In this document: piece by piece, positions 1 to 31,564 of the stretch | Numbering within the stretch: the stretch's first letter is position 1 | Layout of the letters: each line of letters begins with the position of its first letter | IMG/VR virus record: IMGVR_UViG_2802429242_000004 | Length of the DNA stretch: 31,564 bases | Direction: 5' to 3' (one strand) | Source: a virus | Lineage: Duplodnaviria; Heunggongvirae; Uroviricota; Caudoviricetes | The notes under the pieces: model-generated | Told to the model about the DNA's origin: nothing | The model's input: the letters and a program-made list of their open reading frames with translations, nothing else | Databases searched by the model: none | Position numbers and translations under genes: made by a program

Positions 1-1014
1 TTACTCTACTGTGGACACTGTGTGGACACTCTCGACCTCAGTACCACCTCTTAGCGGATTAAGAGAAATGGCGTCCTGAAGGTACTCTGGCGCAAAATGA
101 GCGTAAACCATAGTTTGCTCAATCCGCGTGTGACCTAGTATCCGTTGTAGCGTGATAATACTTCCTCCATTAATCATGAAATGAGTGGCAAAGCTGTGCC
201 TTAGTGCATGTGTAGCTTGCCCCATTGGCAAATCCGGTTTTATTGCTTTCATTGTTCGTCTGAAGCGAGGGTAATCAGCATCAGGGAATAAAAAACCTCG
301 TTTGTTATCCGCGATCATTTTGGCAACAGCCTCTGAGATCGGGACGGTGCGTGGTTTGTTTGTTTTCGTTTTAACAAACGTGACGCGGTTATGGATGATA
401 TTTTCTGCTTTCAAACGAGCTGCTTCTCCCCAACGTGCTCCAGTACTCAGGCAAAGAATCGCAATCTTTTTGTTGTCGCCGTCAAGAGCAGCAAGCAGTA
501 AGGCAATTTCTTCCTGCGTGAGATAGCCTGTGTCTGGTTTTTCCTCCTTAAGCCTTTTTGTCCCTCTGATAGGGTGCTCACCAAAGAATAACTCCGCTTC
601 AATCAGGGCTGTAAACATGCCGCTAATACATGTTAAATCACGATTGATACTCGAAGGTTTAATACCCTGACTTCTTCGGGTGGCGCAGTACTGGCTGATA
701 AGCGATTTCGTAATTTGAAATGCGCATGGGTCATTCGTTATTTTTGTGAAGATTTCAATTTTTCCAAGACTAGATTTCCCATGCTCTTCGTGTTTACCCT
801 TTAAATCCCACCAGATCTGTGTCAGCTCCGACAGAAGTCGCTTGTCTGTTGGTTTTGATAGCCATTCTTTATTGTGGTGGTTGTACAACGTGTATTTCTC
901 GAAAGCGACAGCTTCGCTTTTCTTATCAAACTTCCTACGGATGCGTTTTCCATTACGTCCAGTAGGGCGGATGTCCACTTCATATCGACCATCATCGAGT
1001 TTTTTGATTGCCAT
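1..1014 (-). CDS. int: P2-type tyrosine integrase
   Basis: 337-aa ORF with tyrosine-recombinase C-terminal region (..HALRHSFATHF.. / ..LGHTRIEQTMVYAHF..); N-terminus MAIKKLDDGRYEVD as recalled for P2 Int; first gene inside the prophage end. Confidence 0.93.
   Translation of the reverse strand: MAIKKLDDGRYEVDIRPTGRNGKRIRRKFDKKSEAVAFEKYTLYNHHNKEWLSKPTDKRLLSELTQIWWDLKGKHEEHGKSSLGKIEIFTKITNDPCAFQITKSLISQYCATRRSQGIKPSSINRDLTCISGMFTALIEAELFFGEHPIRGTKRLKEEKPDTGYLTQEEIALLLAALDGDNKKIAILCLSTGARWGEAARLKAENIIHNRVTFVKTKTNKPRTVPISEAVAKMIADNKRGFLFPDADYPRFRRTMKAIKPDLPMGQATHALRHSFATHFMINGGSIITLQRILGHTRIEQTMVYAHFAPEYLQDAISLNPLRGGTEVESVHTVSTVE
10..30. repeat. Tandem direct repeat tgtggacact x2, candidate Int arm-type binding sites (overlaps int 3' end)
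   Basis: tgtggacact at 10-19 and 21-30; related tgtggtca / tgtgtggac copies at about 29975-29995 on the other arm. Confidence 0.4.
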
Positions 1015-1129
1015 CAGAAAACCCTCCGAGTGGTGTGTTTTTTTGCGACTACTAATCGCTTTTTTCGTGGTGGCTGAAATTTAGCCACCAATAGTAGGCA
1101 CTTGTGATGAATATATTCACGATGAATTG

Positions 1130-1429
1130 TTAACCAGTCTTTTGACCGGAGTGGGGCGACGTTGTTTCGTTTTGCCCAAAGTGTGCGAGAGCGGGCGCAA
1201 TTTGCCCGGACTCAGGAGCGATCTGATTGGTCATGAACCATAAAGTGTATTTGGTGAATTGTGGGGTCTGCAGGATGTTCATCATGACATCTGTTGGAGG
1301 TGTTGAACGACCACTTTCATAGTAACTCAGCGTGCCATACGGAACCCCTGTTAAATCAGCAAGTTGTTGTCTGCTCAAATACTCTGATTTTCGCATTAAG
1401 ACTATCTTCTCGCTTATCGTGTTTGACAT
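1130..1429 (-). CDS. C: Immunity repressor C (HTH)
   Basis: 99-aa ORF, same length as P2 C; HTH-like segment LSRQQLADLTGVPYGTLSYYE; divergent from cox. Confidence 0.9.
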   Translation of the reverse strand: MSNTISEKIVLMRKSEYLSRQQLADLTGVPYGTLSYYESGRSTPPTDVMMNILQTPQFTKYTLWFMTNQIAPESGQIAPALAHFGQNETTSPHSGQKTG

Positions 1430-1543
1430 GGTGTTTAGATCTCAATAGTATTTAGTTTAGATGTAGATTGTTTAGTGCTTGGATGTGGGCACTAAAAGGC
1501 ATTATAAGACATTAAACGCAATTCATGAGGGCTAGAGGACGAC
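1430..1543. promoter_or_regulatory. Immunity switch region: divergent Pc/Pe promoters and operator repeats
   Basis: 114-bp AT-rich gap between divergent C and cox; repeated TTTAG(A/T) motifs at about 1451-1476; candidate rightward promoter -35 ttggat (1479-1484), 17-bp spacer, -10 ttataa (1502-1507). Confidence 0.5.
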
Positions 1544-1819
1544 ATGAGCAAGCAAGTAACACTCATGACTGATGCGATTCCTTATCAGGAGTTCGCAAAA
1601 CTAATAGGAAAATCGACAGGAGCGGTTCGTCGGATGATCGATAAAGGAAAGCTGCCTGTAATTGATATGACCGATCCACAATCAGCTTCAGGTCGTGCAG
1701 GTGAATATTGGGTATACCTTCCGGCATGGAATAACGGACTAAAACTGGCTTATGAAAGCCGCCCTAAAGAGATTCGTGACGGCTGGTTGATGTGGTTAGG
1801 TCTCGGTGAACCACGTTAA
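1544..1819 (+). CDS. cox: Cox (excisionase / Pc repressor)
   Basis: 91-aa ORF (P2 Cox is 91 aa), first gene of the rightward early operon; RBS gagga upstream. Confidence 0.88.
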   Translation: MSKQVTLMTDAIPYQEFAKLIGKSTGAVRRMIDKGKLPVIDMTDPQSASGRAGEYWVYLPAWNNGLKLAYESRPKEIRDGWLMWLGLGEPR

Positions 1820-1829
1820 GGAGAACCGT

Positions 1830-2000
1830 ATGAATGAGCCTCGTTGTATTGCTCAGTTACTGCGTAACGAAAGCCCCAGGGCGATTGACTTCACCATCAC
1901 CCACGGTAAGGGGCGTAAGGGAATCATTATCCGCACCAAAAAACAGAGTCCGTTAAAAAAGGCTCTGACCTTTCTGAAAAGCCGGAGGGTCTGGAAATGA
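1830..2000 (+). CDS. Small early protein (P2 orf78 position)
   Basis: ORF in the slot between cox and B; start moved to the ATG at 1830, preceded by aaggag at 1818-1823. Confidence 0.6.
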   Translation: MNEPRCIAQLLRNESPRAIDFTITHGKGRKGIIIRTKKQSPLKKALTFLKSRRVWK

Positions 2001-2497
2001 CAGTGATGACGCTCAATCTCGTTGAAAAACAGCCAGCAGCTATGCGCCGGATAATTGGTAAGCATTTGGCCGTCCCTCGCTGGCAGGAGACATGCGATTA
2101 TTATAATCAGATGATGGAACGCGAACGGCTAACGGTTTGCTTTCATGCGCAGTTAAAACAACGTCACGCAACGATGCGTTTTGAAGAAATGAACGACGTC
2201 GAACGTGAACGGCTGGTTTGTGCAATTGATGAATTGCGTGGGGCATTCTCAAAACGCCGTCAGGTTGGCGCAAGTGAGTATGCATATATTAGTTTTTTAA
2301 CAGTCAGTCAGCGTCGCACTTTATTTATGCACGCACGACTGACAGAAAAAGAATTTAACCAGCCATACTGGCGAATTAATGAAGAATCATGTTACTGGCG
2401 TGATACTTTATTCCGTGCATTACGTGAATTATTCAGCCTGTTTGAGTATGCACCGACAATTCTGACGTCGGTAAAACCAGAGCAATATCTGCATTAA
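1997..2497 (+). CDS. B: Replication protein B
   Basis: 166-aa ORF, same length and position as P2 B; start overlaps the upstream stop (ATGA). Confidence 0.88.
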   Translation: MTVMTLNLVEKQPAAMRRIIGKHLAVPRWQETCDYYNQMMERERLTVCFHAQLKQRHATMRFEEMNDVERERLVCAIDELRGAFSKRRQVGASEYAYISFLTVSQRRTLFMHARLTEKEFNQPYWRINEESCYWRDTLFRALRELFSLFEYAPTILTSVKPEQYLH

Positions 2498-2560
2498 GTA
2501 ATTAACCAGAGTTTTTAACGCACTTAATCGTGCGGGGCTTCTTTTTGCCTGGAGAAAGTC

Positions 2561-2785
2561 ATGCATACAGTTTCTGAAAATCAGTGCGGTAAATTCGCAT
2601 TACTGCTGCAACAGGCCAGAACCGAAGCACAGGCCGACGCTGCGACGCGCTTTTCTTCTCATCTTGACGCCATGATTCGCCACATCACAAAGGCGGAGTT
2701 ATCCCGAGTGGAGATAGTCGAGCTGCTCAGTCAGGAGTCGGAAAAATTTCACAATATCGGATTGTCTCGCGGGGAGGTGCTTTGA
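2561..2785 (+). CDS. Early protein (P2 orf80 position)
   Basis: 74-aa ORF in the early operon between B and A. Confidence 0.6.
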
Positions 2786-3087
2786 TGTCCTGTTCTCGTT
2801 CAATTGTATTACTGAATAACGCCTTAAAAATCGCCGTTATGGAAAATGGCGATTTGTCTCTTATTCAACTTGGTCTTGATAAAGAAAAGCGCGACATAAC
2901 TGAATCTGTTATCGCGATTTATCAGAGCGAATTAAACCTCCTGTCTGATGTGATCAATTTACTTGTGAAACGCGCTGTATTTCACAAGCAAATTTCCTCA
3001 GTGGATGAACTGACAAAATTAACGACAGAACTCGCCAGCTATTGCGCTGATGAATTTAAGAAACTGAACGACAAAAGGAACTGGTAA
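2782..3087 (+). CDS. Early protein (P2 orf81 position)
   Basis: 101-aa ORF, start overlaps upstream stop. Confidence 0.6.
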
Positions 3088-3311
3088 TGCCGGACAACGT
3101 AGATTTCATTCAGGAACAACAGGCTGAATTACTGGAGCGCCAGATTAACGCGGCAAGGGTAAAACATTGCTGTGCTTCTGCGCTGGTTTGCGAAGAGTGT
3201 GATGCGCCAATACCTGCTGCCCGTCGTGCGGCTTATCCGTCAGCCACGCGTTGTGTTTCCTGCCAGTCAGTCTTTGAAGCAAAAAACAAGCATTACCGGA
3301 GAATGGCATGA
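3087..3311 (+). CDS. TraR/DksA-like C4 zinc-finger protein (P2 orf82 position)
   Basis: 74-aa ORF with CxxC-x17-CxxC (CEECDAPIPAARRAAYPSATRCVSCQ). Confidence 0.65.
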   Translation: MPDNVDFIQEQQAELLERQINAARVKHCCASALVCEECDAPIPAARRAAYPSATRCVSCQSVFEAKNKHYRRMA

Positions 3312-3583
3312 GTATTCGTATCGAAATTGGCGAACGTTATGTCGTTACCAGTGACAGCTTTCAGTTTATTCTCCACGAGAAAAAGAGAGCGGAAAGCGGT
3401 AAAAACGCCGGTCAGGAATGGCTGTCGGTGGTTGGTTATTATCCGAAATTAAGCCAGCTCGTTTCCGGCCTGATGCATCACGATATTCTGACCGGAAGCG
3501 CAAAGTCTTTTGCTGATTTAAACGCGCAGGTTGAGCAACTCAGCAAGCGTTGTTCAGAGGCTTTTGGCTCATATGGCCGTTAA
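3308..3583 (+). CDS. Early protein (P2 orf83 position)
   Basis: 91-aa ORF, start overlaps upstream stop and 3' end overlaps the start of A. Confidence 0.6.
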   Translation: MSIRIEIGERYVVTSDSFQFILHEKKRAESGKNAGQEWLSVVGYYPKLSQLVSGLMHHDILTGSAKSFADLNAQVEQLSKRCSEAFGSYGR

Positions 3584-5846
3584 AGCCTCCGGGCGTTTTG
3601 TCCCTCCGTCAGCATTTGCCGCAGACACCGGTAAGACGTTTACCGGTGCTTATGCATGGAACGCGCCACGCGAGGCTGTCGGGCGCGAAAGACCCCTTAC
3701 ACGTGACGAGATGCGTCAGGTGCAAGGTGTTTTATCCACGATTAACCGCCTGCCTTACTTTTTGCGCTCGCTGTTTACGTCACGCTATGACTACATCCGG
3801 CGCAATAAAAGCCCGGTGCACGGGTTTTATTTCCTCACATCCACTTTTCAGCGTCGTTTATGGCCGCGCATTGAGCGTGTGAATCAGCGCCATGAAATGA
3901 ACACCGACGCGTCGATGCTGTTTCTGGCTGAGCGTGACCACTATGCGCGCCTGCCGGGGATGAATGACAAGGAGCTGAAAAAGTTTGCCGCCCGTATCTC
4001 ATCGCAGCTTTTCATGATGTATGAGGAACTCTGCGATGCATGGGTTGATGCACATGGCGAGAAAGAATCGCTGTTTACGGATGAGGCGCAGGCGCATCTG
4101 TATGGTCATGTTGCTGGCGCTGCACGTGCTTTCAATATTTCCCCGCTCTACTGGAAAAAATACCGTAAAGGACAGATGACCACGAGGCAGGCATATTCTG
4201 CCATTGCCCGCCTGTTTAACGATGAGTGGTGGACTCATCAGCTTAAAGGCCAGCGTATGCGCTGGCATGAGGCGTTACTGATTGCTGTCGGGGAGGTCAA
4301 TAAAGACCGTTCTCCTTATGCCAGTAAACATGCCATTCGTGATGTGCGTGCGCGCCGCCAGGCAAATCTGGAATTTCTTAAATCGTGTGACCTTGAAAAC
4401 AAGGAAACCGGCGAGCGCATCGACCTTATCAGTAAGGTGATGGGCAGTATTTCTAATCCAGAAATTCGCCGGATGGAGCTGATGAACACCATCGCCGGTA
4501 TTGAGCGTTACGCCGCCGCAGAGGGTGATGTGGGGATGTTTATCACGCTGACCGCGCCGTCAAAGTATCACCCGACACGTCAGGTCAGAAAAGGCGAAAG
4601 TAAAACCGTCCAGCTAAATCACGGCTGGAACGATGAGGCATTTAATCCAAAGGATGCGCAGCGTTATCTCTGCCGTATCTGGAGCCTGATGCGCACGGCA
4701 TTCAAGGATAATGATTTACAGGCCTACGGTTTGCGTGTTGTTGAACCACACCACGACGGAACGCCGCACTGGCATATGATGCTTTTTTGTAATCCACGCC
4801 AGCGTAACCAGATTATTGAAATCATGCGTCGCTATGCGCTCAAAGAGGATGGCGACGAAAGAGGAGCCGCGCGAAACCGTTTTCAGGCAAAACATCTTAA
4901 CCGGGGCGGTGCTGCGGGGTATATCGCAAAATACATCTCAAAAAACATCGATGGCTATGCACTGGATGGTCAGCTCGATAATGATACCGGCAGGCCGCTG
5001 AAAGATACTGCTGCGGCTGTTACCGCATGGGCGTCAACGTGGCGAATTCCGCAATTTAAAACGATTGGCCTGCCGACAATGGGGGCTTACCGTGAACTAC
5101 GCAAATTGCCTCGCGGCGTCAGTATTGCTGATGAGTTTGACGAACGCGTCGAGGCTGCTCGCGCTGCCGCAGACAGTGGTGATTTTGCGTTGTATATCAG
5201 CGCGCAGGGTGGGGCAAATGTCCCGCGCGATTGTCAGACTGTCAGGGTTGCCCGTAGCCCGTCGGATGACGTTAACGAGTACGAGGAAGAAGTCGAGAGA
5301 GTGGTCGGCATTTACGCGCCGCATCTCGGCGCGCGTCATATTCATATCACCAGAACGACGGACTGGCGCATTGTGCCGAAAGTTCCGGTCGTTGAGCCTT
5401 TGACTTTAAAAAGCGGCATCGCCGCGCCTCGGAGTCCTGTCAATAACTGTGGAAAGCTCACCAGTGGTGATACTTCGTTACCGGCTCCCACACCTTCTGA
5501 GCACGTCGCAGCAGTGCTTAATCTGGTTGATGACGGTGTTATCGAATGGAATGACCCGGAGGTCGTGAGGGCGCTCAGGGGCGCATTAAAACACGGACGC
5601 ACCGCAAAGATTTCTGCCGTCTGTTGGTTGAATAATTCGAGATTTTTGGACATGCATAGTTCCCTTTCATCAATTAAAGACCCTTATGCCGACTGGGCAA
5701 AGAGGCTAACTGTAATGGCCTCAAATAACGACCTGAGCTCACGCGAGGTGGACAGTTACACTGAAAAAATGGTTGAACAAGCCAGTAAAGATGAGCTTAT
5801 GGTCGTTATAAAATACCTGTTAAATCACATCAGAATGAGTAAATAA
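3573..5846 (+). CDS. A: Rolling-circle replication initiator A (HUH endonuclease)
   Basis: Large ORF; start trimmed to MAVKASGRF at 3573; HUH motif TPHWHMMLF and tyrosine motif GYIAKYISKN. Confidence 0.92.
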   Translation: MAVKASGRFVPPSAFAADTGKTFTGAYAWNAPREAVGRERPLTRDEMRQVQGVLSTINRLPYFLRSLFTSRYDYIRRNKSPVHGFYFLTSTFQRRLWPRIERVNQRHEMNTDASMLFLAERDHYARLPGMNDKELKKFAARISSQLFMMYEELCDAWVDAHGEKESLFTDEAQAHLYGHVAGAARAFNISPLYWKKYRKGQMTTRQAYSAIARLFNDEWWTHQLKGQRMRWHEALLIAVGEVNKDRSPYASKHAIRDVRARRQANLEFLKSCDLENKETGERIDLISKVMGSISNPEIRRMELMNTIAGIERYAAAEGDVGMFITLTAPSKYHPTRQVRKGESKTVQLNHGWNDEAFNPKDAQRYLCRIWSLMRTAFKDNDLQAYGLRVVEPHHDGTPHWHMMLFCNPRQRNQIIEIMRRYALKEDGDERGAARNRFQAKHLNRGGAAGYIAKYISKNIDGYALDGQLDNDTGRPLKDTAAAVTAWASTWRIPQFKTIGLPTMGAYRELRKLPRGVSIADEFDERVEAARAAADSGDFALYISAQGGANVPRDCQTVRVARSPSDDVNEYEEEVERVVGIYAPHLGARHIHITRTTDWRIVPKVPVVEPLTLKSGIAAPRSPVNNCGKLTSGDTSLPAPTPSEHVAAVLNLVDDGVIEWNDPEVVRALRGALKHGRTAKISAVCWLNNSRFLDMHSSLSSIKDPYADWAKRLTVMASNNDLSSREVDSYTEKMVEQASKDELMVVIKYLLNHIRMSK

Positions 5847-5985
5847 AATGATCTATATCAAGATGTTATCTCACATTTATGAAAGTCCGTGGACAACGAT
5901 TTTTCTGCTAATTGTTGTCAGTACGTGCCTCAACAGTGTGATTGGTGCATTGCGCGGCCAGTGACAACTATAAAAATTGATCAGA

Positions 5986-6012
5986 ACCGGCACCATGAAT
6001 GCCGGTTTTTTT
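5986..6012 (+). terminator. Rho-independent terminator downstream of A
   Basis: Stem accggca (5986-5992) / tgccggt (6000-6006) with 7-nt loop, followed by a T7 run. Confidence 0.6.
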
Positions 6013-6157
6013 GTGCTTTTTCTGTGATATCCCCGTTTTTATCTGTGCATGGTTTTGCATGTGCCGGAGTTACATGTTCTGGCTGTGCGTCCGCCAGGAC
6101 TGGCGTGGCTCAAAAGCGGTATTGCAACTGCATTAAAACCGCCCCATGAAGCGGGCG

Positions 6158-6176
6158 GGCGAGGCGGGGAAAGCAC
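6158..6176. other. cos: cos cohesive-end 19-mer (ggcgaggcggggaaagcac)
   Basis: Exact match to the P2/P4 cohesive-end sequence as I recall it; lies between A and Q as expected for a P2-like genome. Confidence 0.55.
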
Positions 6177-6212
6177 CGCGCGTAAGATAAACAGAAGAGC
6201 GAAGGATTATGG

Positions 6213-6241
6213 TTGAGTATTTGTGTTTTTGTACATATGAT
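6213..6241 (+). promoter_or_regulatory. Predicted sigma70 promoter for the cargo operon
   Basis: -35 ttgagt (6213-6218), 17-bp spacer, -10 tatgat (6236-6241); RBS aaaggag before the ATG at 6283. Confidence 0.4.
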
Positions 6242-6282
6242 AAAAAGGTGTTTACGCTTAAAAACACATCAAAGGAGATGAT

Positions 6283-7584
6283 ATGGAAAATATAAAGATT
6301 GATAAGTTTCTCACTATTCAAAAAGTTGATATTCCTCTTAAGAAAGTGAATATATTTATTGGGCCTCAGGCACAGGGGAAAAGTGTCATTGCAAAGCTAA
6401 TAAAATATTTTAAAGATTACCCTATGGATATACTACGAGCTTCAACAGAGGGTAAAACTAAAAGAGATATATTGAAGGAGCAAAAGAATAAGTTTAGTAA
6501 AATTTTCCCTCAGCAGTATTGGGCTGATGATGAGTTTTTTATTGAGTATAGTAATAAGCACTATTGGGTGCGGATTACTAATCGAAAAGATAGCAAAGGG
6601 TCATTGAAAATAACCCTTTCTGAGAATTTAACGAAGACGATTGCTAAACTTCGTTTGATTGTACGAAAGGATTTAGATGAAAATATTGAGAATTCACTTG
6701 CAGAAAGCGTTACGAGAAGACGTAAACGCGGAATTGAACATGAATTGCGAGTATGTCTTTCTCTAGGATTGTTTTCAGAACCAGAAACAAAGCTTGAAAG
6801 TGTTTTTTATATCCCCGCAGGGCGCTCTTTTTTTGCTAACTTGCAAAAAAATGTGTTTTCATTTTTATCCAGTAGTATAGAAATTGACTACTTTTTGACA
6901 GAGTTTGGTTCTCTGTATGAACAAACAAAAAAATTATTTAGCCAAGATTACATGATTAGGATGCTTAGGGGGGCTGTGCCTCAACATGTTAATAAGCTTG
7001 TGGAGGAGTTGATTTGCGGAAAATATATAACAGAAAAGGGTGAGGATTTTATTCGTCATGCTGCTAAAAAGACGAATCTTAACAACTCGAGCTCAGGGCA
7101 GCAAGAAGCGTTACCAATGGCTTTAATGTTATCCTCATGGCCGTATTTACAGTCTATGACTAGTAAGAGTTTTATTATTGAGGAGCCGGAGGCTCATCTG
7201 TTTCCTTCTGCCCAAGCAAAAGTTGTATCTTTAATAGCCTCAGCGTATAACCAAGCAGAAAGCTATTGTAGCTATACAATAACAACACATAGCCCATATA
7301 TTCTAAGTGCCTTCAATAATTTGATTCAAGCAGGTAATGCATTGAAGTGTATTAAGGGCAAGAATAATGCCGATATCGAACGCTTATATAAGCTTGTTCC
7401 AGAGTCTCAAATTATTGATTTTGATGATGTGACAGCTTATATGGTTAATGCTGGGAAAGTGACGGAAATACTGGATTCCGAACTAAATATATTAGATGCG
7501 AATGAAATAGATAGGATTTCCTCTATTTTTTCAGAGACTTTTGATGCATTGATTGATATCGAATATTCGGCTACTGTGAATTAG
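6283..7584 (+). CDS. ABC-type (AAA_21/OLD-like) ATPase without a nuclease domain; candidate defence component
   Basis: 433 aa; Walker A GPQAQGKS (K33), ABC signature-like SSGQQEAL, Walker B FIIEEPE, H-loop TTHS; region is strongly AT-rich compared with the flanking phage genes. Confidence 0.75.
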   Translation: MENIKIDKFLTIQKVDIPLKKVNIFIGPQAQGKSVIAKLIKYFKDYPMDILRASTEGKTKRDILKEQKNKFSKIFPQQYWADDEFFIEYSNKHYWVRITNRKDSKGSLKITLSENLTKTIAKLRLIVRKDLDENIENSLAESVTRRRKRGIEHELRVCLSLGLFSEPETKLESVFYIPAGRSFFANLQKNVFSFLSSSIEIDYFLTEFGSLYEQTKKLFSQDYMIRMLRGAVPQHVNKLVEELICGKYITEKGEDFIRHAAKKTNLNNSSSGQQEALPMALMLSSWPYLQSMTSKSFIIEEPEAHLFPSAQAKVVSLIASAYNQAESYCSYTITTHSPYILSAFNNLIQAGNALKCIKGKNNADIERLYKLVPESQIIDFDDVTAYMVNAGKVTEILDSELNILDANEIDRISSIFSETFDALIDIEYSATVN

Positions 7585-7592
7585 GTGATTGA

Positions 7593-8030
7593 ATGTGTAA
7601 AAATTGCAAAGGAAAAACAAAAAATAAAATCATTGTGCTATCTGATAAAGGAACGTCAACGCAATTGTCAGTCATAAATGATAATGAGTTGGAGGTTGAG
7701 CATAAGTTAATAGATGGTTGCGCTATTGTTGTTGGGGAGCGGTGTGATCATTATTTGAAGATTTATAACAATCAGGATGTTTCACATCTTTTTGTTGAAC
7801 TTAAAGGAAGTGATGTTGAAAAAGCTGTTAAACAGATAGTGACAACTTTAAAGTCAGGTGTGATTAATGTAGGTGCTAAAGAAAAAAAACATGGTGCTAT
7901 TGTTAGCACTAGGAATCCGCTAAACTCAACAGAAACCAATAAGTTAAAGAAGAAAATTCTTTTGAGTGACGGAGTGAATTTGCATTTCTATAAAATGAAG
8001 GCGCAGCAAAAAATAACTTCTTTTACATGA
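7593..8030 (+). CDS. Small protein with PD-(D/E)xK-like motif; candidate nuclease effector
   Basis: 145 aa; 8 bp after the ATPase stop with its own RBS aggtga; N-terminal CxxC, then D41/D52 ... E69-L-K71 (HLFVELKGSD); lysine-rich C-terminus. Confidence 0.5.
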   Translation: MCKNCKGKTKNKIIVLSDKGTSTQLSVINDNELEVEHKLIDGCAIVVGERCDHYLKIYNNQDVSHLFVELKGSDVEKAVKQIVTTLKSGVINVGAKEKKHGAIVSTRNPLNSTETNKLKKKILLSDGVNLHFYKMKAQQKITSFT

Positions 8031-19258: not shown

Positions 19259-19862
19259 TTCGCGACTGCTGCCGACCGGCTCATCACCGCTTGAAGTTGC
19301 CGCCGCAAAAGCCTGTGCGGAAATTGAAAAAACGCCGGTCAGTATTCGTGAGCTGTGGAACCCGGACACCTGCCCGGCAAATCTGCTGCCGTGGCTGGCG
19401 TGGTCATTTTCGGTTGACCGCTGGGATGATAAGTGGCCGGAAGCGACAAAACGCGCTGTTATCCGCGATGCGTATTTCATTCACTGCCATAAGGGCACTA
19501 TAGGCGCAATCCGGCGCGTGGTGGAGCCGCTCGGCTATCTGATTGAGGTGAGGGAGTGGTGGCAGCTCAACGAGGAGCCGGGGACGTTCCGCATCGTTGT
19601 TGGCGTGCTTGAGCAGGGTATTACCGAGGAAATGTATCAGGAGCTGGAGCGCCTCGTTGCTGATGCAAAACCGGCAAGCCGCCATCTGACGGGACTGGCT
19701 ATCAGTTTAAGTACAACCGGCAACATTTTTGCCGGTGCGGGATGCTATCACGGTGACGCCCTGACGGTTTATCCCTACACCCCGGAGGCCATTATTGTCG
19801 GAGGGGATTATTTCCCGGCCTCGGCCATTCATTTAATTGATAACCTGAGAGTAAACGCATGA
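19251..19862 (+). CDS. I: Baseplate protein I
   Basis: 203-aa ORF overlapping J upstream and H downstream. Confidence 0.85.
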   Translation: MSDSRLLPTGSSPLEVAAAKACAEIEKTPVSIRELWNPDTCPANLLPWLAWSFSVDRWDDKWPEATKRAVIRDAYFIHCHKGTIGAIRRVVEPLGYLIEVREWWQLNEEPGTFRIVVGVLEQGITEEMYQELERLVADAKPASRHLTGLAISLSTTGNIFAGAGCYHGDALTVYPYTPEAIIVGGDYFPASAIHLIDNLRVNA

Positions 19863-21076
19863 CAGTGAAATACTACGCCATTCTGACTAATCAGGGCGCA
19901 GCACGGCTGGCTAACGCGACGATGCTCGGCAGTAAGCTGAATCTGACGCAAATGGCCGTTGGTGATGCGAATGGTGTCTTGCCGACACCAGATCCGGCAC
20001 AGACAAAACTGATTAACCAGAAACGCATCGCGCCGCTGAATCTTCTGAGTGTTGACCCGAACAACCAGAGCCAGATTATTGCGGAGCAAATCATCCCTGA
20101 GAACGAGGGCGGATTCTGGATCCGTGAGATTGGGCTTTATGATGATGAAGGCGTACTCATTGCGGTGGCGAACTGCCCGGAAACGTACAAACCGCAGTTG
20201 CAGGAAGGCAGTGGTCGTACCCAGACTATCCGCATGATTCTGGTTGTCACGAATACCGAAGCTATTACGCTGAAAATCGACCCGTCGGTGGTACTGGCGA
20301 CCCGTAAATACGTGGATGATGAAGTCCTGGAATTAAGGCTGTATGTGGATGACCAGATGAGAAACCACATTGCCGCACAGGATCCTCATACCCAGTATGC
20401 ACAGAAACATAATCCGACATTTACCGGAGAACCAAAAGCGCCGACGCCTGCCGCAGGAAATAACACCACGCGGATTGCGACCACTGAGTTTGTTCAGGCC
20501 GCTATTACCGCTCTGATTAACGGTGCGCCAGCCACGCTGGACACACTGAAAGAAATTGCCGCAGCCATTAACAATGACCCGAAATTCAGTACCACCATTA
20601 ACAATGCGCTGTCAGGTAAGCAGCCACTGGATGAGACGCTGACTCATTTGAGTGGAAAGGATGTTGCCGGTCTTCTCGCATACCTTGGTTTGGGAGAAGC
20701 GGCAACGAGGAACGTCGGAACGGATACCGGGCAAGTACCAGATATGAGTAGTTTTACAACGGGGCACTCTGGAGCAGCAGACTGGCCGAATCCTAAATCT
20801 GGATGGAGTAAGGGGCCGGATGGGGTAATTACACAATGGGGTATTTTCGGTTTCCCCGTTGGACAGACAGGGACGAATGTTGTTTTCCCGCTACCTTTCC
20901 CCGCGCGGGTCGAATCAATTACACTGACAATGGCAGATATCCAGGAGTCTCTGCTTTCTCCAGCAACCATGCCTGCTTATGGAGTTAACTCAACTGGTAC
21001 TTCAAGAACGGGTTTTACAGCCCGTATGTCAGGCGCCGGTGGGTTTAATCTTTGCTATATAGCGAAAGGGAGATAA
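19859..21076 (+). CDS. H: Tail fibre protein H (constant N-terminus fused to currently expressed variable C-terminus)
   Basis: 405 aa; constant part to about residue 275 (..AGLLAYLGLGE), then the recombination site; the C-terminal ~130 aa lie inside the invertible segment. Confidence 0.85.
   Translation: MTVKYYAILTNQGAARLANATMLGSKLNLTQMAVGDANGVLPTPDPAQTKLINQKRIAPLNLLSVDPNNQSQIIAEQIIPENEGGFWIREIGLYDDEGVLIAVANCPETYKPQLQEGSGRTQTIRMILVVTNTEAITLKIDPSVVLATRKYVDDEVLELRLYVDDQMRNHIAAQDPHTQYAQKHNPTFTGEPKAPTPAAGNNTTRIATTEFVQAAITALINGAPATLDTLKEIAAAINNDPKFSTTINNALSGKQPLDETLTHLSGKDVAGLLAYLGLGEAATRNVGTDTGQVPDMSSFTTGHSGAADWPNPKSGWSKGPDGVITQWGIFGFPVGQTGTNVVFPLPFPARVESITLTMADIQESLLSPATMPAYGVNSTGTSRTGFTARMSGAGGFNLCYIAKGR
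20673..20698. repeat. Left invertase crossover site (hix/gix-like 26-bp site inside H)
   Basis: ttctcgcatacc-tt-ggtttgggagaa: two imperfect inverted 12-bp half-sites around a central dinucleotide; the 15-bp core ttggtttgggagaag is perfectly inverted at 22592-22606. Confidence 0.65.
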
Positions 21077-21080
21077 CAGA

Positions 21081-21524
21081 ATGAATAAAGTTAAAAGTGT
21101 TTACAGCCCGTCCGAAAATGCAATCTACAACGCAGCGCTATATGAAAGTTATATCAAGGAGGGGACATGGCCGCAGGATGGTATTGAAATCAGCGATGAG
21201 GATGCTGTCAGATTTAATGGGGGAAATAAGCCAACAGGAAAAATGCTGGGAATGGTTTCAGGGACCCTTGCATGGGTTGATGAGCCGCCGCTTTCACCAG
21301 AACAGAAAATATCAGATGCAGAAAACATGAAAGCCACATTTCGTGCAAAAGCTGACAGTGAAATATCCTGGCGTCAGGATGCTGTTGATGCTGGTATCGC
21401 AACTGATGAAGAAACTTCAACTCTCACCCAATGGAAGAAATACCGTGTGCTGCTGATGCGTGTTGATACATCAACAGCCCCCGATATTGAATGGCCTACA
21501 CCTCCGGCAGTTCAGGCCAGATGA
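21081..21524 (+). CDS. G: Tail fibre assembly chaperone G (for the current H C-terminus)
   Basis: 147 aa; C-terminal motif TSTAPDIEWP typical of tail-fibre assembly proteins. Confidence 0.82.
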   Translation: MNKVKSVYSPSENAIYNAALYESYIKEGTWPQDGIEISDEDAVRFNGGNKPTGKMLGMVSGTLAWVDEPPLSPEQKISDAENMKATFRAKADSEISWRQDAVDAGIATDEETSTLTQWKKYRVLLMRVDTSTAPDIEWPTPPAVQAR

Positions 21525-22098
21525 CATCCGGCGCGGTGCTGGTATCTGTTGCCGTCACCGCGTCAATGTAATCCAGCACGGCGTTAAGGCGGGTGGTTTC
21601 TGCCTGCGTCAGCCTCCGCCCGGCCTGTAATTTCAGCTGAATCAGACTGATGGAAGCCATTGCAGCATCAATCAGTGACTGGCGCTGTGCTTCTGCCGCG
21701 TCTACTGCGGCGCAATGCTGTGCCTCAGTATCGGTCACCCATTTCTCACCATCCCATTTATCGTATGGCGTTAACGGGGCGATAGTGGTTGTATTTTCGG
21801 GGTAATCACCCGGAGTTGTGATTTCTTTGGCGTCTCCCGTTTCGGTGTTATAGACGATTTCTCCGCGATGGTCTGGCACATATTCCCATGAGTTTAAATC
21901 CGCAGAGCGGCAGATGGCATAACCAGCTTTATATGTTCCTGGTGCATCTAAACAGGAACATGCCGGAATACCGACACCAACAGCAAGATATTCAGTTGAT
22001 GTGGAAATATATTCTCGTGTTTCACCATTATAATTATAGACAGTAATATCCCCCGCCTTCGTGGCAATAAGCTCGCTATTTAATACGGCATTATCCAT
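21496..22098 (-). CDS. Alternative tail fibre assembly chaperone (G')
   Basis: 200 aa on the opposite strand inside the invertible segment; same C-terminal motif (TSTAPDVIWPELP); its 3' end overlaps G convergently. Confidence 0.8.
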   Translation of the reverse strand: MDNAVLNSELIATKAGDITVYNYNGETREYISTSTEYLAVGVGIPACSCLDAPGTYKAGYAICRSADLNSWEYVPDHRGEIVYNTETGDAKEITTPGDYPENTTTIAPLTPYDKWDGEKWVTDTEAQHCAAVDAAEAQRQSLIDAAMASISLIQLKLQAGRRLTQAETTRLNAVLDYIDAVTATDTSTAPDVIWPELPEV

Positions 22099-22606
22099 TA
22101 TGCAGCCCTCACGATGTAATTAAATGAAAGGTTACGAGGGCGCATTGATATCCATGCCCCGGTAAAATTATCCTCCGCTGTCCTTTGAGTACCCGTTATG
22201 GAGTTATCTGCTGATGCAGGAACATAATCGCTATTATTTCCTGCTTTAGGATTAGCTGGGTTTCCAACAGTTATAACAGAATCAGCAGTAGCAAAAGCGA
22301 TACCTACTTTGACATTAGTATTCAGATCGTAACCGTAATAATCCTGCAAAGCTGTACGAATAAATGTTGCAGCCTGACCACTTAGCAATGAACGCCCCGT
22401 ATCAATCCCTCTAGAATCATCCCAGCCACGAATAAACTCACCACGTAAATCAGGCAATTTATTTGTCGGGTAAGCCTTTGCCAGTTCCGGGTATTCTTCA
22501 GCAGAAAAAGCTGCTCCGTTGCATTTCAGCCAGCCTGTTGGAGGTGTCTCTGAAGGCCACGGAACAGGTGCACCAACAGGTAATGCTGAACCTTCTCCCA
22601 AACCAA
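22098..22606 (-). CDS. Alternative (silent) tail fibre C-terminal segment H'
   Basis: Minus-strand reading frame continuous from the right crossover site (encodes ..LGLGEGSALPVGAPVPWP..); no own promoter or N-terminus, so expressed only after inversion. Confidence 0.75.
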
Positions 22607-22618
22607 CGTTTATGAAAA
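22593..22618. repeat. Right invertase crossover site (hix/gix-like)
   Basis: ttctcccaaacc-aa-cgtttatgaaaa; half-site TTCTCCCAAACC resembles the Gin/Hin half-site pattern (recalled), central AA. Confidence 0.65.
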
Positions 22619-22673
22619 TGCAGAGATAATGGCTAACTGGCATCATCCCCGGTTTTTATTCAGGGGATTGATC

Positions 22674-23267
22674 ATGCTTATTGGCTATATACGCGTGTCA
22701 ACAAATGACCAGAACACGGAATTGCAGCGTAACGCGCTGGAGTGCGCAGGATGCGAGCGGATTTTTGAGGATAAAATCAGTGGCACGAAGTCCGACCGAC
22801 CGGGACTGAAAAAACTGCTCAGAACATTATCAGCAGGTGACACTCTGGTAGTCTGGAAGCTGGACCGGCTGGGGCGTAGTATGCGGCATCTGGTCATTCT
22901 GGTTGAGGAGCTGCGCGAACGCGGCGTTAATTTTCGCAGCCTGACAGATGCTATTGATACCAGCACGCCGATGGGGCGTTTTTTCTTTCATGTGATGGGT
23001 GCCCTGGCTGAAATGGAGCGAGAACTCATTGTCGAGCGGACACGCGCCGGACTGGAAGCGGCCAGAGCCAAAGGGCGTATTGGTGGCAGACGTCCGAAGC
23101 TCACCGCGAGTGAGTGGGAACAGGCAGGACGGTTGCTGGCTGCGGGTGAATCACGTCAACGCGTGGCGCTGATTTTTGATATTGGCCTGTCCACGCTCTA
23201 TAAAAAATTCCCCTCATCAGCGGCAAAGAATAAATTGTGTCATCCCTTAGCCAACCGGGACAAATAG
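22674..23267 (+). CDS. Site-specific DNA invertase, serine recombinase (Hin/Gin/Cin/Pin family)
   Basis: N-terminus MLIGYIRVSTNDQ with the catalytic serine; resolvase/invertase catalytic domain plus C-terminal HTH; immediately next to the right crossover site. Start trimmed from the track's 22629. Confidence 0.9.
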   Translation: MLIGYIRVSTNDQNTELQRNALECAGCERIFEDKISGTKSDRPGLKKLLRTLSAGDTLVVWKLDRLGRSMRHLVILVEELRERGVNFRSLTDAIDTSTPMGRFFFHVMGALAEMERELIVERTRAGLEAARAKGRIGGRRPKLTASEWEQAGRLLAAGESRQRVALIFDIGLSTLYKKFPSSAAKNKLCHPLANRDK

Positions 23268-23326: not shown

Positions 23327-24517
23327 ATGAGTGACTATCATCACGGCGTGCAGGTGCTGGAGATTAACGACGGCACCCGCGTCATTTCCACCGTATCCAC
23401 CGCCATTGTTGGCATGGTCTGCACGGCCAGCGATGCGGATGCGGAAACCTTCCCCGTCAATAAACCGGTGCTGATCACCAATGTGCAGAGCGCGATTGCA
23501 AAGGCCGGTAAAAAAGGCACGCTGGCGGCATCGTTGCAGGCCATCGCTGACCAGTCAAAACCGGTCACCGTTGTCGTGCGCGTGGAAGACGGCACCGGCG
23601 ACGACGAAGAAACGAAACTCGCGCAGACCGTTTCCAATATCATCGGCACCACCGACGAAAACGGTCAGTACACCGGGCTGAAAGCCCTGCTGGCGGCGGA
23701 GTCGGTAACCGGTGTTAAACCGCGTATTCTCGGCGTGCCGGGACTGGATACCAAAGAGGTGGCTGTTGCACTGGCATCAGTCTGTCAGAAGCTGCGCGCT
23801 TTCGGGTATATCAGCGCATGGGGCTGTAAAACTATTTCCGAGGTGAAAGCCTACCGCCAGAATTTCAGCCAGCGTGAGCTGATGGTCATCTGGCCGGATT
23901 TCCTCGCATGGGATACGGTCACCAGTACCACCGCCACCGCGTATGCCACCGCCCGTGCGCTGGGTCTGCGCGCTAAAATCGACCAGGAGCAGGGCTGGCA
24001 TAAAACGCTGTCCAACGTCGGGGTAAACGGTGTTACCGGCATCAGCGCCTCTGTATTCTGGGATTTGCAGGAGTCCGGCACCGATGCTGACCTGCTTAAC
24101 GAGTCAGGCGTCACTACGCTGATTCGCCGTGACGGTTTCCGATTCTGGGGTAACCGTACCTGCTCTGATGACCCGCTGTTCCTCTTTGAAAACTACACCC
24201 GCACCGCGCAGGTGCTGGCCGACACGATGGCTGAGGCGCACATGTGGGCGGTGGACAAGCCCATCACCGCAACGCTGATTCGCGACATCGTTGACGGCAT
24301 CAATGCCAAATTCCGTGAGCTGAAAACAAACGGCTATATCGTGGATGCGACCTGCTGGTTCAGCGAAGAATCCAACGATGCGGAAACCCTCAAGGCCGGA
24401 AAACTGTATATCGACTACGACTATACCCCGGTGCCTCCTCTTGAAAACCTGACCCTGCGCCAGCGTATTACCGATAAATACCTGGCAAATCTGGTCACCT
24501 CGGTTAACAGCAATTAA
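23327..24517 (+). CDS. FI: Tail sheath protein
   Basis: 396 aa, same length and position as P2 FI. Confidence 0.92.
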   Translation: MSDYHHGVQVLEINDGTRVISTVSTAIVGMVCTASDADAETFPVNKPVLITNVQSAIAKAGKKGTLAASLQAIADQSKPVTVVVRVEDGTGDDEETKLAQTVSNIIGTTDENGQYTGLKALLAAESVTGVKPRILGVPGLDTKEVAVALASVCQKLRAFGYISAWGCKTISEVKAYRQNFSQRELMVIWPDFLAWDTVTSTTATAYATARALGLRAKIDQEQGWHKTLSNVGVNGVTGISASVFWDLQESGTDADLLNESGVTTLIRRDGFRFWGNRTCSDDPLFLFENYTRTAQVLADTMAEAHMWAVDKPITATLIRDIVDGINAKFRELKTNGYIVDATCWFSEESNDAETLKAGKLYIDYDYTPVPPLENLTLRQRITDKYLANLVTSVNSN

Positions 24518-29710: not shown

Positions 29711-29929
29711 ATGTTTCATTGTCCTTTATGCCAGCATGCCGCACATGCGCGTACAAGCCGCTATATCACTGACACGACAAAAGAGCGTTATCACCAGTGT
29801 CAGAACGTGAATTGCAGCGCCACGTTCATCACTTATGAGTCTGTACAGCGATACATTGTGAAGCCGGGAGAAGTCCACGCCGTGAGGCCGCACCCGTTGC
29901 CGTCAGGGCAGCAAATTATGTGGATGTAA
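29711..29929 (+). CDS. ogr: Ogr late-gene transcription activator (C4 zinc finger)
   Basis: 72 aa after trimming to MFHCPLCQHAAHAR; CxxC-x22-CxxC zinc finger; matches P2 Ogr as recalled. Confidence 0.9.
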   Translation: MFHCPLCQHAAHARTSRYITDTTKERYHQCQNVNCSATFITYESVQRYIVKPGEVHAVRPHPLPSGQQIMWM

Positions 29930-29939
29930 TTACAAACAG

Positions 29940-29969
29940 AAAGCCCCTCAGTCGAGGGGCTTTTTTTGT
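29940..29969 (+). terminator. Rho-independent terminator after ogr
   Basis: Stem agcccctc (29942-29949) / gaggggct (29954-29961), 4-nt loop, T7 run. Confidence 0.8.
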
Positions 29970-29970
29970 C

Positions 29971-29996
29971 GATGTGGTCAATGTGTGGACGTGACC
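29971..29996. repeat. Candidate Int arm-type sites on the ogr-side arm
   Basis: tgtggtca ... tgtgtggac direct repeats related to the tgtggacact repeats at 10-30. Confidence 0.35.
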
Positions 29997-30031
29997 AGAA
30001 ATAAATCCTTTTATTTCAATTTGTTGTACGT

Positions 30032-30058
30032 AAAAAATAAGCCCGTGTAAGGGAGATT
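30032..30058. other. attR: attR core (P2-type 27-bp core aaaaaataagcccgtgtaagggagatt)
   Basis: Matches the P2 attP/attB core as I recall it; lies at the phage/host junction and coincides with the cyaR terminator. Confidence 0.7.
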
Positions 30059-30118
30059 ACACAGGCTAAGGAGGTGGTTCCTGGTACAGCTAGCATTTTA
30101 TGGGTTATGTTTTTCAGC
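30032..30118 (-). ncRNA. cyaR: CyaR (RyeE) Hfq-dependent sRNA
   Basis: Minus strand reads gctgaaaaacataacccataaaatgctagctgtaccaggaaccacctccttagcctgtgtaatctcccttacacgggcttatttttt (87 nt), matching CyaR as recalled, including the anti-SD-like CCACCUCCUUA and a terminator hairpin plus U-run. Confidence 0.8.
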
Positions 30119-30139
30119 GAAACAGATAATAACCTTAAT

Positions 30140-30159
30140 AAATGCAGCCGTATGTGATC
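30140..30159 (-). promoter_or_regulatory. Candidate CRP site and promoter of cyaR
   Basis: atgca-N6-tgtga upstream of cyaR and a tattat -10 about 7 bp before the cyaR 5' end; CyaR is known to be CRP-activated. Confidence 0.45.
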
Positions 30160-30202
30160 GGTTTCTAAGAATTTTCTATCCGGGAAAAATAATCGAAATG
30201 AA

Positions 30203-31564
30203 TCACTTACCGTGCGGGTTACGCGTGGTTTCCCCGGAGAAATTACGCATCAGCAGTGCGTAATTCAGCTCGAGATCCTGCGGAACCGGGAGCCACACGG
30301 TATAGCCATCGCCAGGCGCGACCGGCATCGCTTCACCTTTGGCGTTTTCCATGTGCTCAAGGGTAAAGTTGATATTGCCCTGTGGCGTCATCAGTTCCAG
30401 GCTGTCGCCAACGGAGAATTTATTTTTCACCGCTACGGCTGCCAGAGAGCCTTTACGCTCACCGGTAAACTCTCCAACAAACTGCTGGCGGTCAGAAACG
30501 GAATAACCGTATTCGTAGTTCTGGTAATCGTCGTGAGTATGACGACGCAGGAAACCTTCGGTGTAACCACGATGCGCCAGGCCTTCCAGTGTTTCCAGCA
30601 GGCTGGTGTCGAACGGTTTGCCCGCAGCGGCGTCATCGATAGCTTTACGATAAACCTGCGCGGTACGTGCACAATAGTAGAAAGATTTAGTGCGGCCTTC
30701 GATTTTCAGCGAATGCACGCCCATTTTGGTCAGGCGTTCAACGTGGGCGATGGCGCGCAGATCTTTCGAGTTCATGATGTAAGTGCCGTGCTCATCTTCA
30801 AACGCGGTCATATACTCGCCCGGGCGCTGGGCTTCTTCGATCATAAACACTTTGTCGGTTGGCGCACCGATACCCAGCGTCGGCTCGACGTTTTGCACCG
30901 GAATCGGCTCGTATTTGTGTACGATGTTGCCAACGTCATCTTCTTTCCCTTCCTGCACGTTGTACTCCCAACGGCAGGCGTTGGTGCAGGTGCCCTGGTT
31001 TGGATCGCGTTTGTTGATGTAGCCAGAGAGCAGGCAGCGGCCGGAGTAGGCCATGCACAGCGCGCCGTGAACGAAGATTTCAAGCTCCATATCCGGAACC
31101 TGATTGCGGATCTCTTCAATCTCTTCCAGCGACAGCTCGCGGGAGAGGATCACGCGGGTCAACCCCATTTGCTGCCAGAATTTCACCGTCGCCCAGTTTA
31201 CGGCGTTGGCCTGCACGGAAAGGTGGATCGGCATTTCAGGGAAGTGTTCACGCACCAGCATAATCAGCCCCGGATCGGACATAATCAGTGCGTCCGGCCC
31301 CATTTCCACCACCGGTTTCAGATCACGGATAAAGGTTTTTAGCTTGGCATTGTGTGGCGCAATGTTGACCACGACATAAAACTTTTTCCCCAGCGCGTGG
31401 GCTTCATTGATGCCGAGCTGGAGATTTTCGTGGTTAAATTCGTTGTTGCGCACACGCAGGGAGTAACGCGGTTGCCCCGCATAAACAGCATCTGCGCCAT
31501 AAGCGAAAGCGTAACGCATATTTTTCAGCGTTCCCGCCGGGGAAAGGAGTTCCGGTTTAAACAT
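30203..31564 (-). CDS. yegQ: Host U32-family peptidase-like protein YegQ (RlhA)
   Basis: 453-aa ORF starting MFKPELLSPAGTLKNMRYAFAYGADAVYAG, recognised as E. coli YegQ; codon usage and GC differ from the cargo; convergent with ogr as in the K-12 yegQ-ogrK locus. Confidence 0.85.
   Translation of the reverse strand: MFKPELLSPAGTLKNMRYAFAYGADAVYAGQPRYSLRVRNNEFNHENLQLGINEAHALGKKFYVVVNIAPHNAKLKTFIRDLKPVVEMGPDALIMSDPGLIMLVREHFPEMPIHLSVQANAVNWATVKFWQQMGLTRVILSRELSLEEIEEIRNQVPDMELEIFVHGALCMAYSGRCLLSGYINKRDPNQGTCTNACRWEYNVQEGKEDDVGNIVHKYEPIPVQNVEPTLGIGAPTDKVFMIEEAQRPGEYMTAFEDEHGTYIMNSKDLRAIAHVERLTKMGVHSLKIEGRTKSFYYCARTAQVYRKAIDDAAAGKPFDTSLLETLEGLAHRGYTEGFLRRHTHDDYQNYEYGYSVSDRQQFVGEFTGERKGSLAAVAVKNKFSVGDSLELMTPQGNINFTLEHMENAKGEAMPVAPGDGYTVWLPVPQDLELNYALLMRNFSGETTRNPHGK

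Follow-up and report, generated by a model that had tools for sequence, protein, structure and literature searches.

How does the genome of a temperate phage come to end inside a regulatory RNA gene of its host, and what becomes of that gene? The question is posed by a stretch of 31,564 nucleotides (hereafter, the window), which runs from the stop codon of a phage integrase gene (position 1) to the start codon of the chromosomal gene yegQ, also known as trhP (31564). A sequence-only reading had recognized the small RNA (sRNA) gene cyaR on the minus strand at 30032-30118, complete with its anti-Shine-Dalgarno seed, and proposed that a prophage is integrated in the 3' end of this gene, with the attachment core doubling as the sRNA terminator. 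Having followed up this proposal computationally, we are highly confident that the right end of the phage DNA represents the attR of an intact P2-type prophage residing at the primary P2 site, the 3' end of the CRP-dependent gene cyaR, in an Escherichia marmotae chromosome. No observation contradicts this reading.

The identity of the sRNA gene was established by the two comparisons which the sequence-only reading had suggested. Searching the whole window against Rfam yielded a single match, to RF00112 (CyaR_RyeE) on the minus strand at 30120-30035, which spans the full model (positions 1-85 of 85) and scores 100.7 bits (E=3e-19), the gathering score being 47. The 87 nt on the minus strand between 30118 and 30032 are identical at all 87 positions to cyaR (b4438) of E. 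coli K-12 MG1655. As in K-12, the gene is located downstream of yegQ (30203-31564, minus strand) and on the same strand. Among the eight RefSeq E. coli records listed, none has a feature annotated beneath the cyaR match, so that the overlap of prophage and sRNA is invisible in their annotation; in K-12, the ncRNA is annotated.

Fold predictions and a terminator scan showed that the RNA encoded in the window presents the anti-Shine-Dalgarno seed (CCUCCU) in the loop of a hairpin and ends in a rho-independent terminator with its U-tail. The seed, CCACCUCCU, is displayed by a small hairpin, AGGAACCACCUCCU, which corresponds to CyaR nt 37-50 (window 30082-30069, minus strand) and is supported by the Rfam match, the fold, and the K-12 alignment alike. 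The full-length RNA folds with a minimum free energy of -19.8 kcal/mol (z = -3.0). Its terminator hairpin, with an 11-bp stem and a 6-nt loop, covers CyaR nt 52-79 (window 30067-30040) and is followed by the 3' tail UUAUUUUUU (30032-30039), in which six U residues precede an A contributed by the phage P arm. When folded in isolation, the terminator reaches a z-score of -4.75, with none of 200 shuffled sequences folding as well, and it is also detected by a simple terminator scan.

Upstream of the gene, a putative promoter could be delineated at 30126-30168 (minus strand) by direct reading and alignment to K-12, its function being extrapolated from the K-12 literature. It includes a -10 hexamer, TATTAT (30126-30131), and a CRP-type site, TGTGATCGGTTTCTAA, of the form TGTGA-N6-TCTAA (30153-30168), which is centered at approximately -42 and is identical to the CRP site of K-12. 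The K-12 counterpart of the hexamer is TATCAT, the change bringing the version in the window nearer to the consensus. Overall, the upstream region (30119-30208) is identical to K-12 at 85 of 90 positions, with 5/90 differences. A scan for consensus sigma-70 promoters upstream of cyaR found none, which, in our view, would fit a CRP-dependent promoter devoid of a good -35 element, without in itself speaking for one.

The phage side of the junction is equally well defined. In the P2 genome (AF063097), positions 24356-24382 are annotated as 'attP' and 'Int attP core' and read AAAAAATAAGCCCGTGTAAGGGAGATT. An exact copy (27/27) of this core occupies positions 30032-30058 of the window, where it constitutes the overlap in homology between phage and chromosome, and its reverse complement corresponds to CyaR nt 61-87, in agreement with the initial assignment of a 27-bp P2 core to the 3' end of cyaR. 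This is the only copy of the core in the window, no second copy having been found there with up to 3 mismatches, and none of 100 shuffled sequences contained a match even when 3 mismatches were allowed. The possibility that the resemblance to CyaR or to the P2 core arose by chance is refuted by the Rfam E value of 3e-19, the 87/87 identity to K-12 cyaR, and this shuffle test, and is further opposed by the exactness of the core and the synteny with yegQ and ogr; we consider its probability to be practically nil.

Comparison with phage genomes and with chromosomes confines the junction from both sides. In a megablast search against phage genomes, P2 and its relatives match the window at approximately 97% identity up to position 30058 and do not match beyond it. 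From the other side, unoccupied sites among 5426 complete E. coli genomes match from position 30031/30032 onward, and the chromosomal match begins at this same point in 5424 genomes. In a four-way alignment of the window, the P2 attP, an unoccupied E. coli site, and K-12, the window is composed of the P arm, the core, and the chromosomal B' side. Judging by these alignments, the right junction is attR, the same junction as in K-12, and the exact right boundary of the prophage is fixed at 30058. The P arm (29969-30033, plus strand) includes an Int arm-type site (29969-29996) and an IHF site (30000-30033), with coordinates carried over from the P2 annotation by alignment, and differs from that of P2 by one substitution. 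Next to it, on the plus strand, lie ogr and its rho-independent terminator (29711-29967): the gene itself (29711-29929) encodes a 72-aa protein that is 100% identical to P2 Ogr, whereas the terminator, a hairpin at 29940-29963 followed by a T-run, carries one extra T compared to that of P2.

Precise mapping of the core onto the RNA calls for a partial revision of the original proposal, in which the core was equated with the CyaR terminator stem and U-tract. The core does include the terminator loop, the 3' arm, the U-tail, and the last 2 nt of the 5' arm (30040-30058 for the hairpin portion), but the remainder of that arm (30059-30067) belongs to the chromosome. Since the duplicated segment covers only half of the terminator stem, the terminator is kept only at attR and not at attL. 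Consistently, when folds were compared with those of shuffled sequences, the terminator formed only in the attR and attB contexts, with no significant hairpin for the core in the attL and attP contexts (z = -0.8 and -1.4, respectively). For the same reason, namely that they fold no better than shuffles, the orphan core of attL and the core of attP were rejected as candidate terminators of the int transcript. It had also been suggested that integration regenerates an intact sRNA 3' end from phage-derived core sequence. The first part of this suggestion stands: the segment exchanged is the same on both sides, and cyaR at attR therefore has the sequence of the K-12 reference. As for the second part, the identity of the two cores makes the crossover point within the core impossible to locate and the phage-derived bases of cyaR indeterminable.

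Because the window begins at the int stop codon, attL necessarily lies outside of it, and we therefore turned to public contigs. A look-up with the exact Int protein sequence returned seven contigs, one of which (PTTC01000002.1 of assembly GCA_002966085.1; hereafter L012) aligns to window positions 1-7014 with 0 mismatches, including part of a strain-specific cargo gene. In L012, 79 bp separate window position 1 from an exact 27-bp core on its left, the P' arm between this core and int is identical to that of P2, and the sequence outside the core matches, without any difference, the left side of the unoccupied E. marmotae site in CP025979. The same attL arrangement is present in the other six contigs with an identical Int and in E. 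coli ARS-C301. Thus, the core copy anticipated at the left junction, outside the window, can be seen in a public contig that is identical to the window over positions 1-7014.

The chromosome hosting the prophage is, by an exact look-up of the YegQ protein, nucleotide identity, and gene order, of the Escherichia marmotae type rather than that of E. coli. To the right of the core, 1506 bp show 99.7% identity to CP025979, which belongs to E. marmotae HT073016 (PMC6650469), and 100% identity to several other assemblies, compared with approximately 94% identity to E. coli and E. ruysiae. On the far side, the gene order in L012 (yegS, a DeoC-family gene, a nucleoside symporter gene, and so on) is that of E. 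marmotae. When the site is unoccupied in this species, yegS, which has the same orientation as cyaR, starts approximately 70 nt past the core (L006 11522-11621). In the lysogen, yegS is located 191 bp downstream of int (L012 7015-7206), such that the lysogenic C-int transcript points at yegS.

Within the window, the P2-like (Peduovirus) prophage extends over positions 1-30058, from int through cos to ogr, and lacks only the leftmost 106 bp (the P' arm and the attL core), for a whole length of approximately 31.7 kb. Of the 42 annotated P2 proteins used as tblastn queries, 37 match the window without in-frame stops and nearly all in full length: int, C, cox, orf78, B, orf80-83, A, Q, P, O, N, M, L, X, Y, K, lysA, lysB, lysC, R, S, V, W, J, I, FI, FII, E, T, U, D, and ogr, plus partial and divergent matches to H and G. 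Most of these matches are full length with 93-100% identity, and C, Cox, and Ogr are each 100% identical to their P2 counterparts. The integrase gene (1-1014, minus strand) encodes a 337-aa protein identical to P2 Int at 333 of 337 positions (99%), and the 19-nt P2 cos, the cohesive end, is present in an exact copy at 6158-6176. The P2 genes orf30, fun(Z), orf91, tin, and old, all of them non-essential cargo, were missing or replaced in the window in this tblastn search.

These observations bear on the notion that the element is a decayed and immobile P2 remnant, akin to the K-12 cryptic prophage. Such remnants are indeed frequent at this site: K-12 retains only ogrK and a fragment of D, and across the 5426 complete E. 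coli genomes, the junction of P arm, core, and cyaR occurs in 1222 (~22%), compared with 764 genomes that carry this int. In the window, however, the matches to the essential genes Q, P, O, N, M, L, X, Y, K, R, S, V, W, J, FI, FII, E, T, U, D, ogr, int, C, cox, B, and I are essentially full length and free of stops (the Q match, at 91% identity, spans residues 1-339 of 344, and I, at 82% identity, is one residue short). The match to A ends at residue 674 of 761, but the open reading frame continues to 5846, and the H/G tail-fiber genes have been replaced by a different module. In addition, cos is exact, the core is intact, as are the IHF site and the P arm, and L012 has a P' arm with the very sequence of P2. 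We thus find the notion of a decayed remnant highly improbable, and the statement that a full prophage is present, with only non-essential cargo missing or replaced, is borne out: at the sequence level, the prophage is apparently intact and would presumably still be able to excise.

Several features of the prophage are worth recording in their own right. Between cos and gene Q, positions 6283-8030 hold an ATPase gene and a partner gene. The ATPase (433 aa) has AAA_15/AAA_21 domains and matches PADLOC PDC-M29A (2e-31) and AriA (1.7e-25), and the 145-aa partner protein matches PDC-M29B (2.8e-4); based on these profile matches, the pair is probably a candidate anti-phage system. The old and tin genes, which are absent from the window, are located in P2 on the other side of cos from this Q-side cargo. 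The tail-fiber region (19859-23267) looks invertible, judging from its gene layout. The plus strand carries H (405 aa) and an assembly protein gene, whereas the minus strand carries a second assembly protein gene (21496-22098) and a fiber C-terminal segment with a Collar domain (22098-22646), after which comes a serine invertase gene (Resolvase and HTH_7 domains; 22629-23267). The invertase and the inverted segment sit where P2 has fun(Z), and it is this module that takes the place of the P2 H and G genes. Finally, among 25 listed records of complete E. coli chromosomes, 6 (H66, H68, H77, H85, H86, and H90) end exactly 3571 bp past the equivalent of window position 1, meaning that these records start at the ATG of the P2 replication gene A (window 3573). 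This may be an artefact of genome-rotation software, which would have taken a prophage gene for the replication start gene.

Integration of P2 requires the tyrosine integrase Int together with IHF, excision additionally requires Cox, and the strands are exchanged within the core. Applied to the window, this scheme would have Int and IHF, the likely agents of recombination, join the 27-bp core of attP to the identical 27 bp of the cyaR terminator (the loop, 3' arm, and U-tail). At the resulting attR, made up of the P arm, the core, and the chromosomal B' side, the promoter, the seed, and the 5' arm of the terminator are supplied by the chromosome, and CyaR is presumably expressed and functional in the lysogen. 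The resulting attL consists of the chromosomal flank, the core, the P' arm, and int, leaving there an orphan 27-bp copy predicted to be unable to form a terminator on its own. With identical 27-bp cores at the two ends, the P and P' arms inside, and chromosomal flanks outside, the arrangement has the composition of a product of conservative site-specific recombination.

Would such an insertion be neutral for the host? An alternative to neutrality is that integration alters the 3' end of CyaR and its downstream context, whereby termination, Hfq binding, or the expression of neighboring genes would differ, amounting to lysogenic conversion through an sRNA. At the unoccupied E. marmotae site, the RNA ends with U7 followed by G, compared with U6 followed by A in the lysogen. 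According to PMC9765468, Hfq binding favors seven or more U residues, and the K-12 CyaR terminator was reported there to be read through at 41% in a double-terminator assay; both points would lend this alternative some substance. Furthermore, the prophage shifts yegS from its position approximately 70 nt downstream of the core by approximately 31.7 kb and places int upstream of it. Nevertheless, U6 also occurs at some sites without a P2-type P arm (ECMA0423 and the attL flank of ARS-C301), and the cyaR gene of K-12, the one used in functional work on CyaR, has the lysogen-type U6-A end, from which it is evident that U6 is sufficient. More broadly, the lysogen and K-12 share U6-A, unoccupied E. 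marmotae has U7, and E. coli varies, some having U7 and others U6. Given that both lengths occur at unoccupied sites, integration changes at most one terminal U, which is within the natural variation. The occurrence of U6 in K-12 and at sites without a P2-type P arm also weakens the specific idea that shortening of the U-tail renders the CyaR of lysogens defective. As for the neighboring gene, approximately 0.8 kb is inserted between cyaR and yegS in all E. coli examined, making yegS independent of cyaR read-through in that species. On balance, we regard conversion through the sRNA as unlikely. A milder version, restricted to E. marmotae, in which P2 lysogeny at cyaR would be slightly non-neutral owing to the change from U7 to U6, to phage DNA antisense to ogr being positioned past a leaky terminator, and to the uncoupling of yegS behind int, strikes us as similarly doubtful.

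The insertion in E. coli is of interest in itself. Compared with E. marmotae, the E. coli sites called 'empty' are in fact occupied by this segment of approximately 0.8 kb, which includes yegR and abuts the core precisely at its left edge (L002 2197-3000, E. coli MIN10). It was examined in nine E. coli-type loci (L002, L003, L004, L011, L014, L015, L017, L019, and L021). The right end of the insertion holds a relic of the P2 P arm, tcgatgtggtcaatg (15/15), and the left end holds a degenerate copy of the core, AAAAAGTCAGTTCAAGTATGGAGGATT (18/27), which is identical in 9/9 loci. YegR matches the phage protein family phrog_21109 (E=4e-71). The segment reads as an ancient P2-like remnant lodged between att sites.

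The overlap between the P2 attachment site and the 3' end of cyaR is not new; the arrangement is common, and the overlap has been in the literature under the name cyaR or ryeE since the early 2000s and can be read from the reference annotation of K-12. The Haggård-Ljungquist laboratory reportedly described both the 27-bp core and the remnant at locI in K-12 around 1989-1992. In the K-12 RefSeq record, the 'cryptic prophage PR-X' (2167183-2167811) covers the final 18 nt of cyaR, with ogrK and the D' pseudogene yegZ coming next, so the order yegQ(trhP)-cyaR-[PR-X: ogrK, yegZ]-yegR places a P2 remnant at the same position, as the sequence-only reading had stated. In the genome paper on E. coli W, 'cyaR RNA' is given as the site where the P2 prophage Wphi2 is inserted, and likewise for K-12 ogr-D' and P2*B of E. 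coli B (PMC3032704), and a passage in Bobay and colleagues describes ryeE in E. coli as 'previously known to be targeted by phages', with reference to Wassarman et al. 2001 (PMC3603311).

Against this background, the window shares with the P2 primary site (locI) and K-12 PR-X the 27-bp core, the P arm, the yegQ/trhP and cyaR neighbors, the orientation, and the cyaR sequence itself. It differs from PR-X, of which only approximately 0.6 kb is left (ogrK and a D fragment), in containing a whole prophage of approximately 31.7 kb, and its E. marmotae chromosome is without the island carrying yegR that lies beside the site in E. coli. The prophages Wphi2 (E. coli W) and P2*B (E. coli B) are likewise full or partial P2-type prophages in the same sRNA gene (PMC3032704), but reside in another host species, and the window differs from them in cargo, with the AAA_15/AAA_21 ATPase pair between cos and Q and the invertible fiber module in place of fun(Z). 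A wider parallel is offered by temperate phages and islands that insert at the 3' end of a gene for a tRNA, tmRNA, or another sRNA, such as ryeB/sdsR in Salmonella, where the core overlaps a 3' hairpin and the phage copy restores the gene (PMC3603311, PMC3333887). What differs here is that the target is an Hfq-dependent regulatory sRNA and that the duplicated part includes only half of the terminator stem.

The distribution of the site extends beyond these examples. A scan of GTDB with a 40-nt pattern composed of the core and cyaR sequence recovered 12 loci. Among loci L018-L029, exact conservation of the core together with the adjoining cyaR bases extends to Shigella, E. ruysiae, several members of Kluyvera, and two records of Enterobacter hormaechei. 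In K. intermedia (L029) and in 'E. coli ECDA1023' (L019), a second, diverged P2-like P arm adjoins the same core, suggesting that the site serves another phage lineage as well.

Collectively, these results indicate that an arrangement of phage, core, and sRNA familiar from E. coli extends unchanged to Escherichia marmotae. Should lysogeny at cyaR prove to be slightly non-neutral in this species, lysogens and non-lysogens would differ in CyaR dosage or in the expression of yegS.
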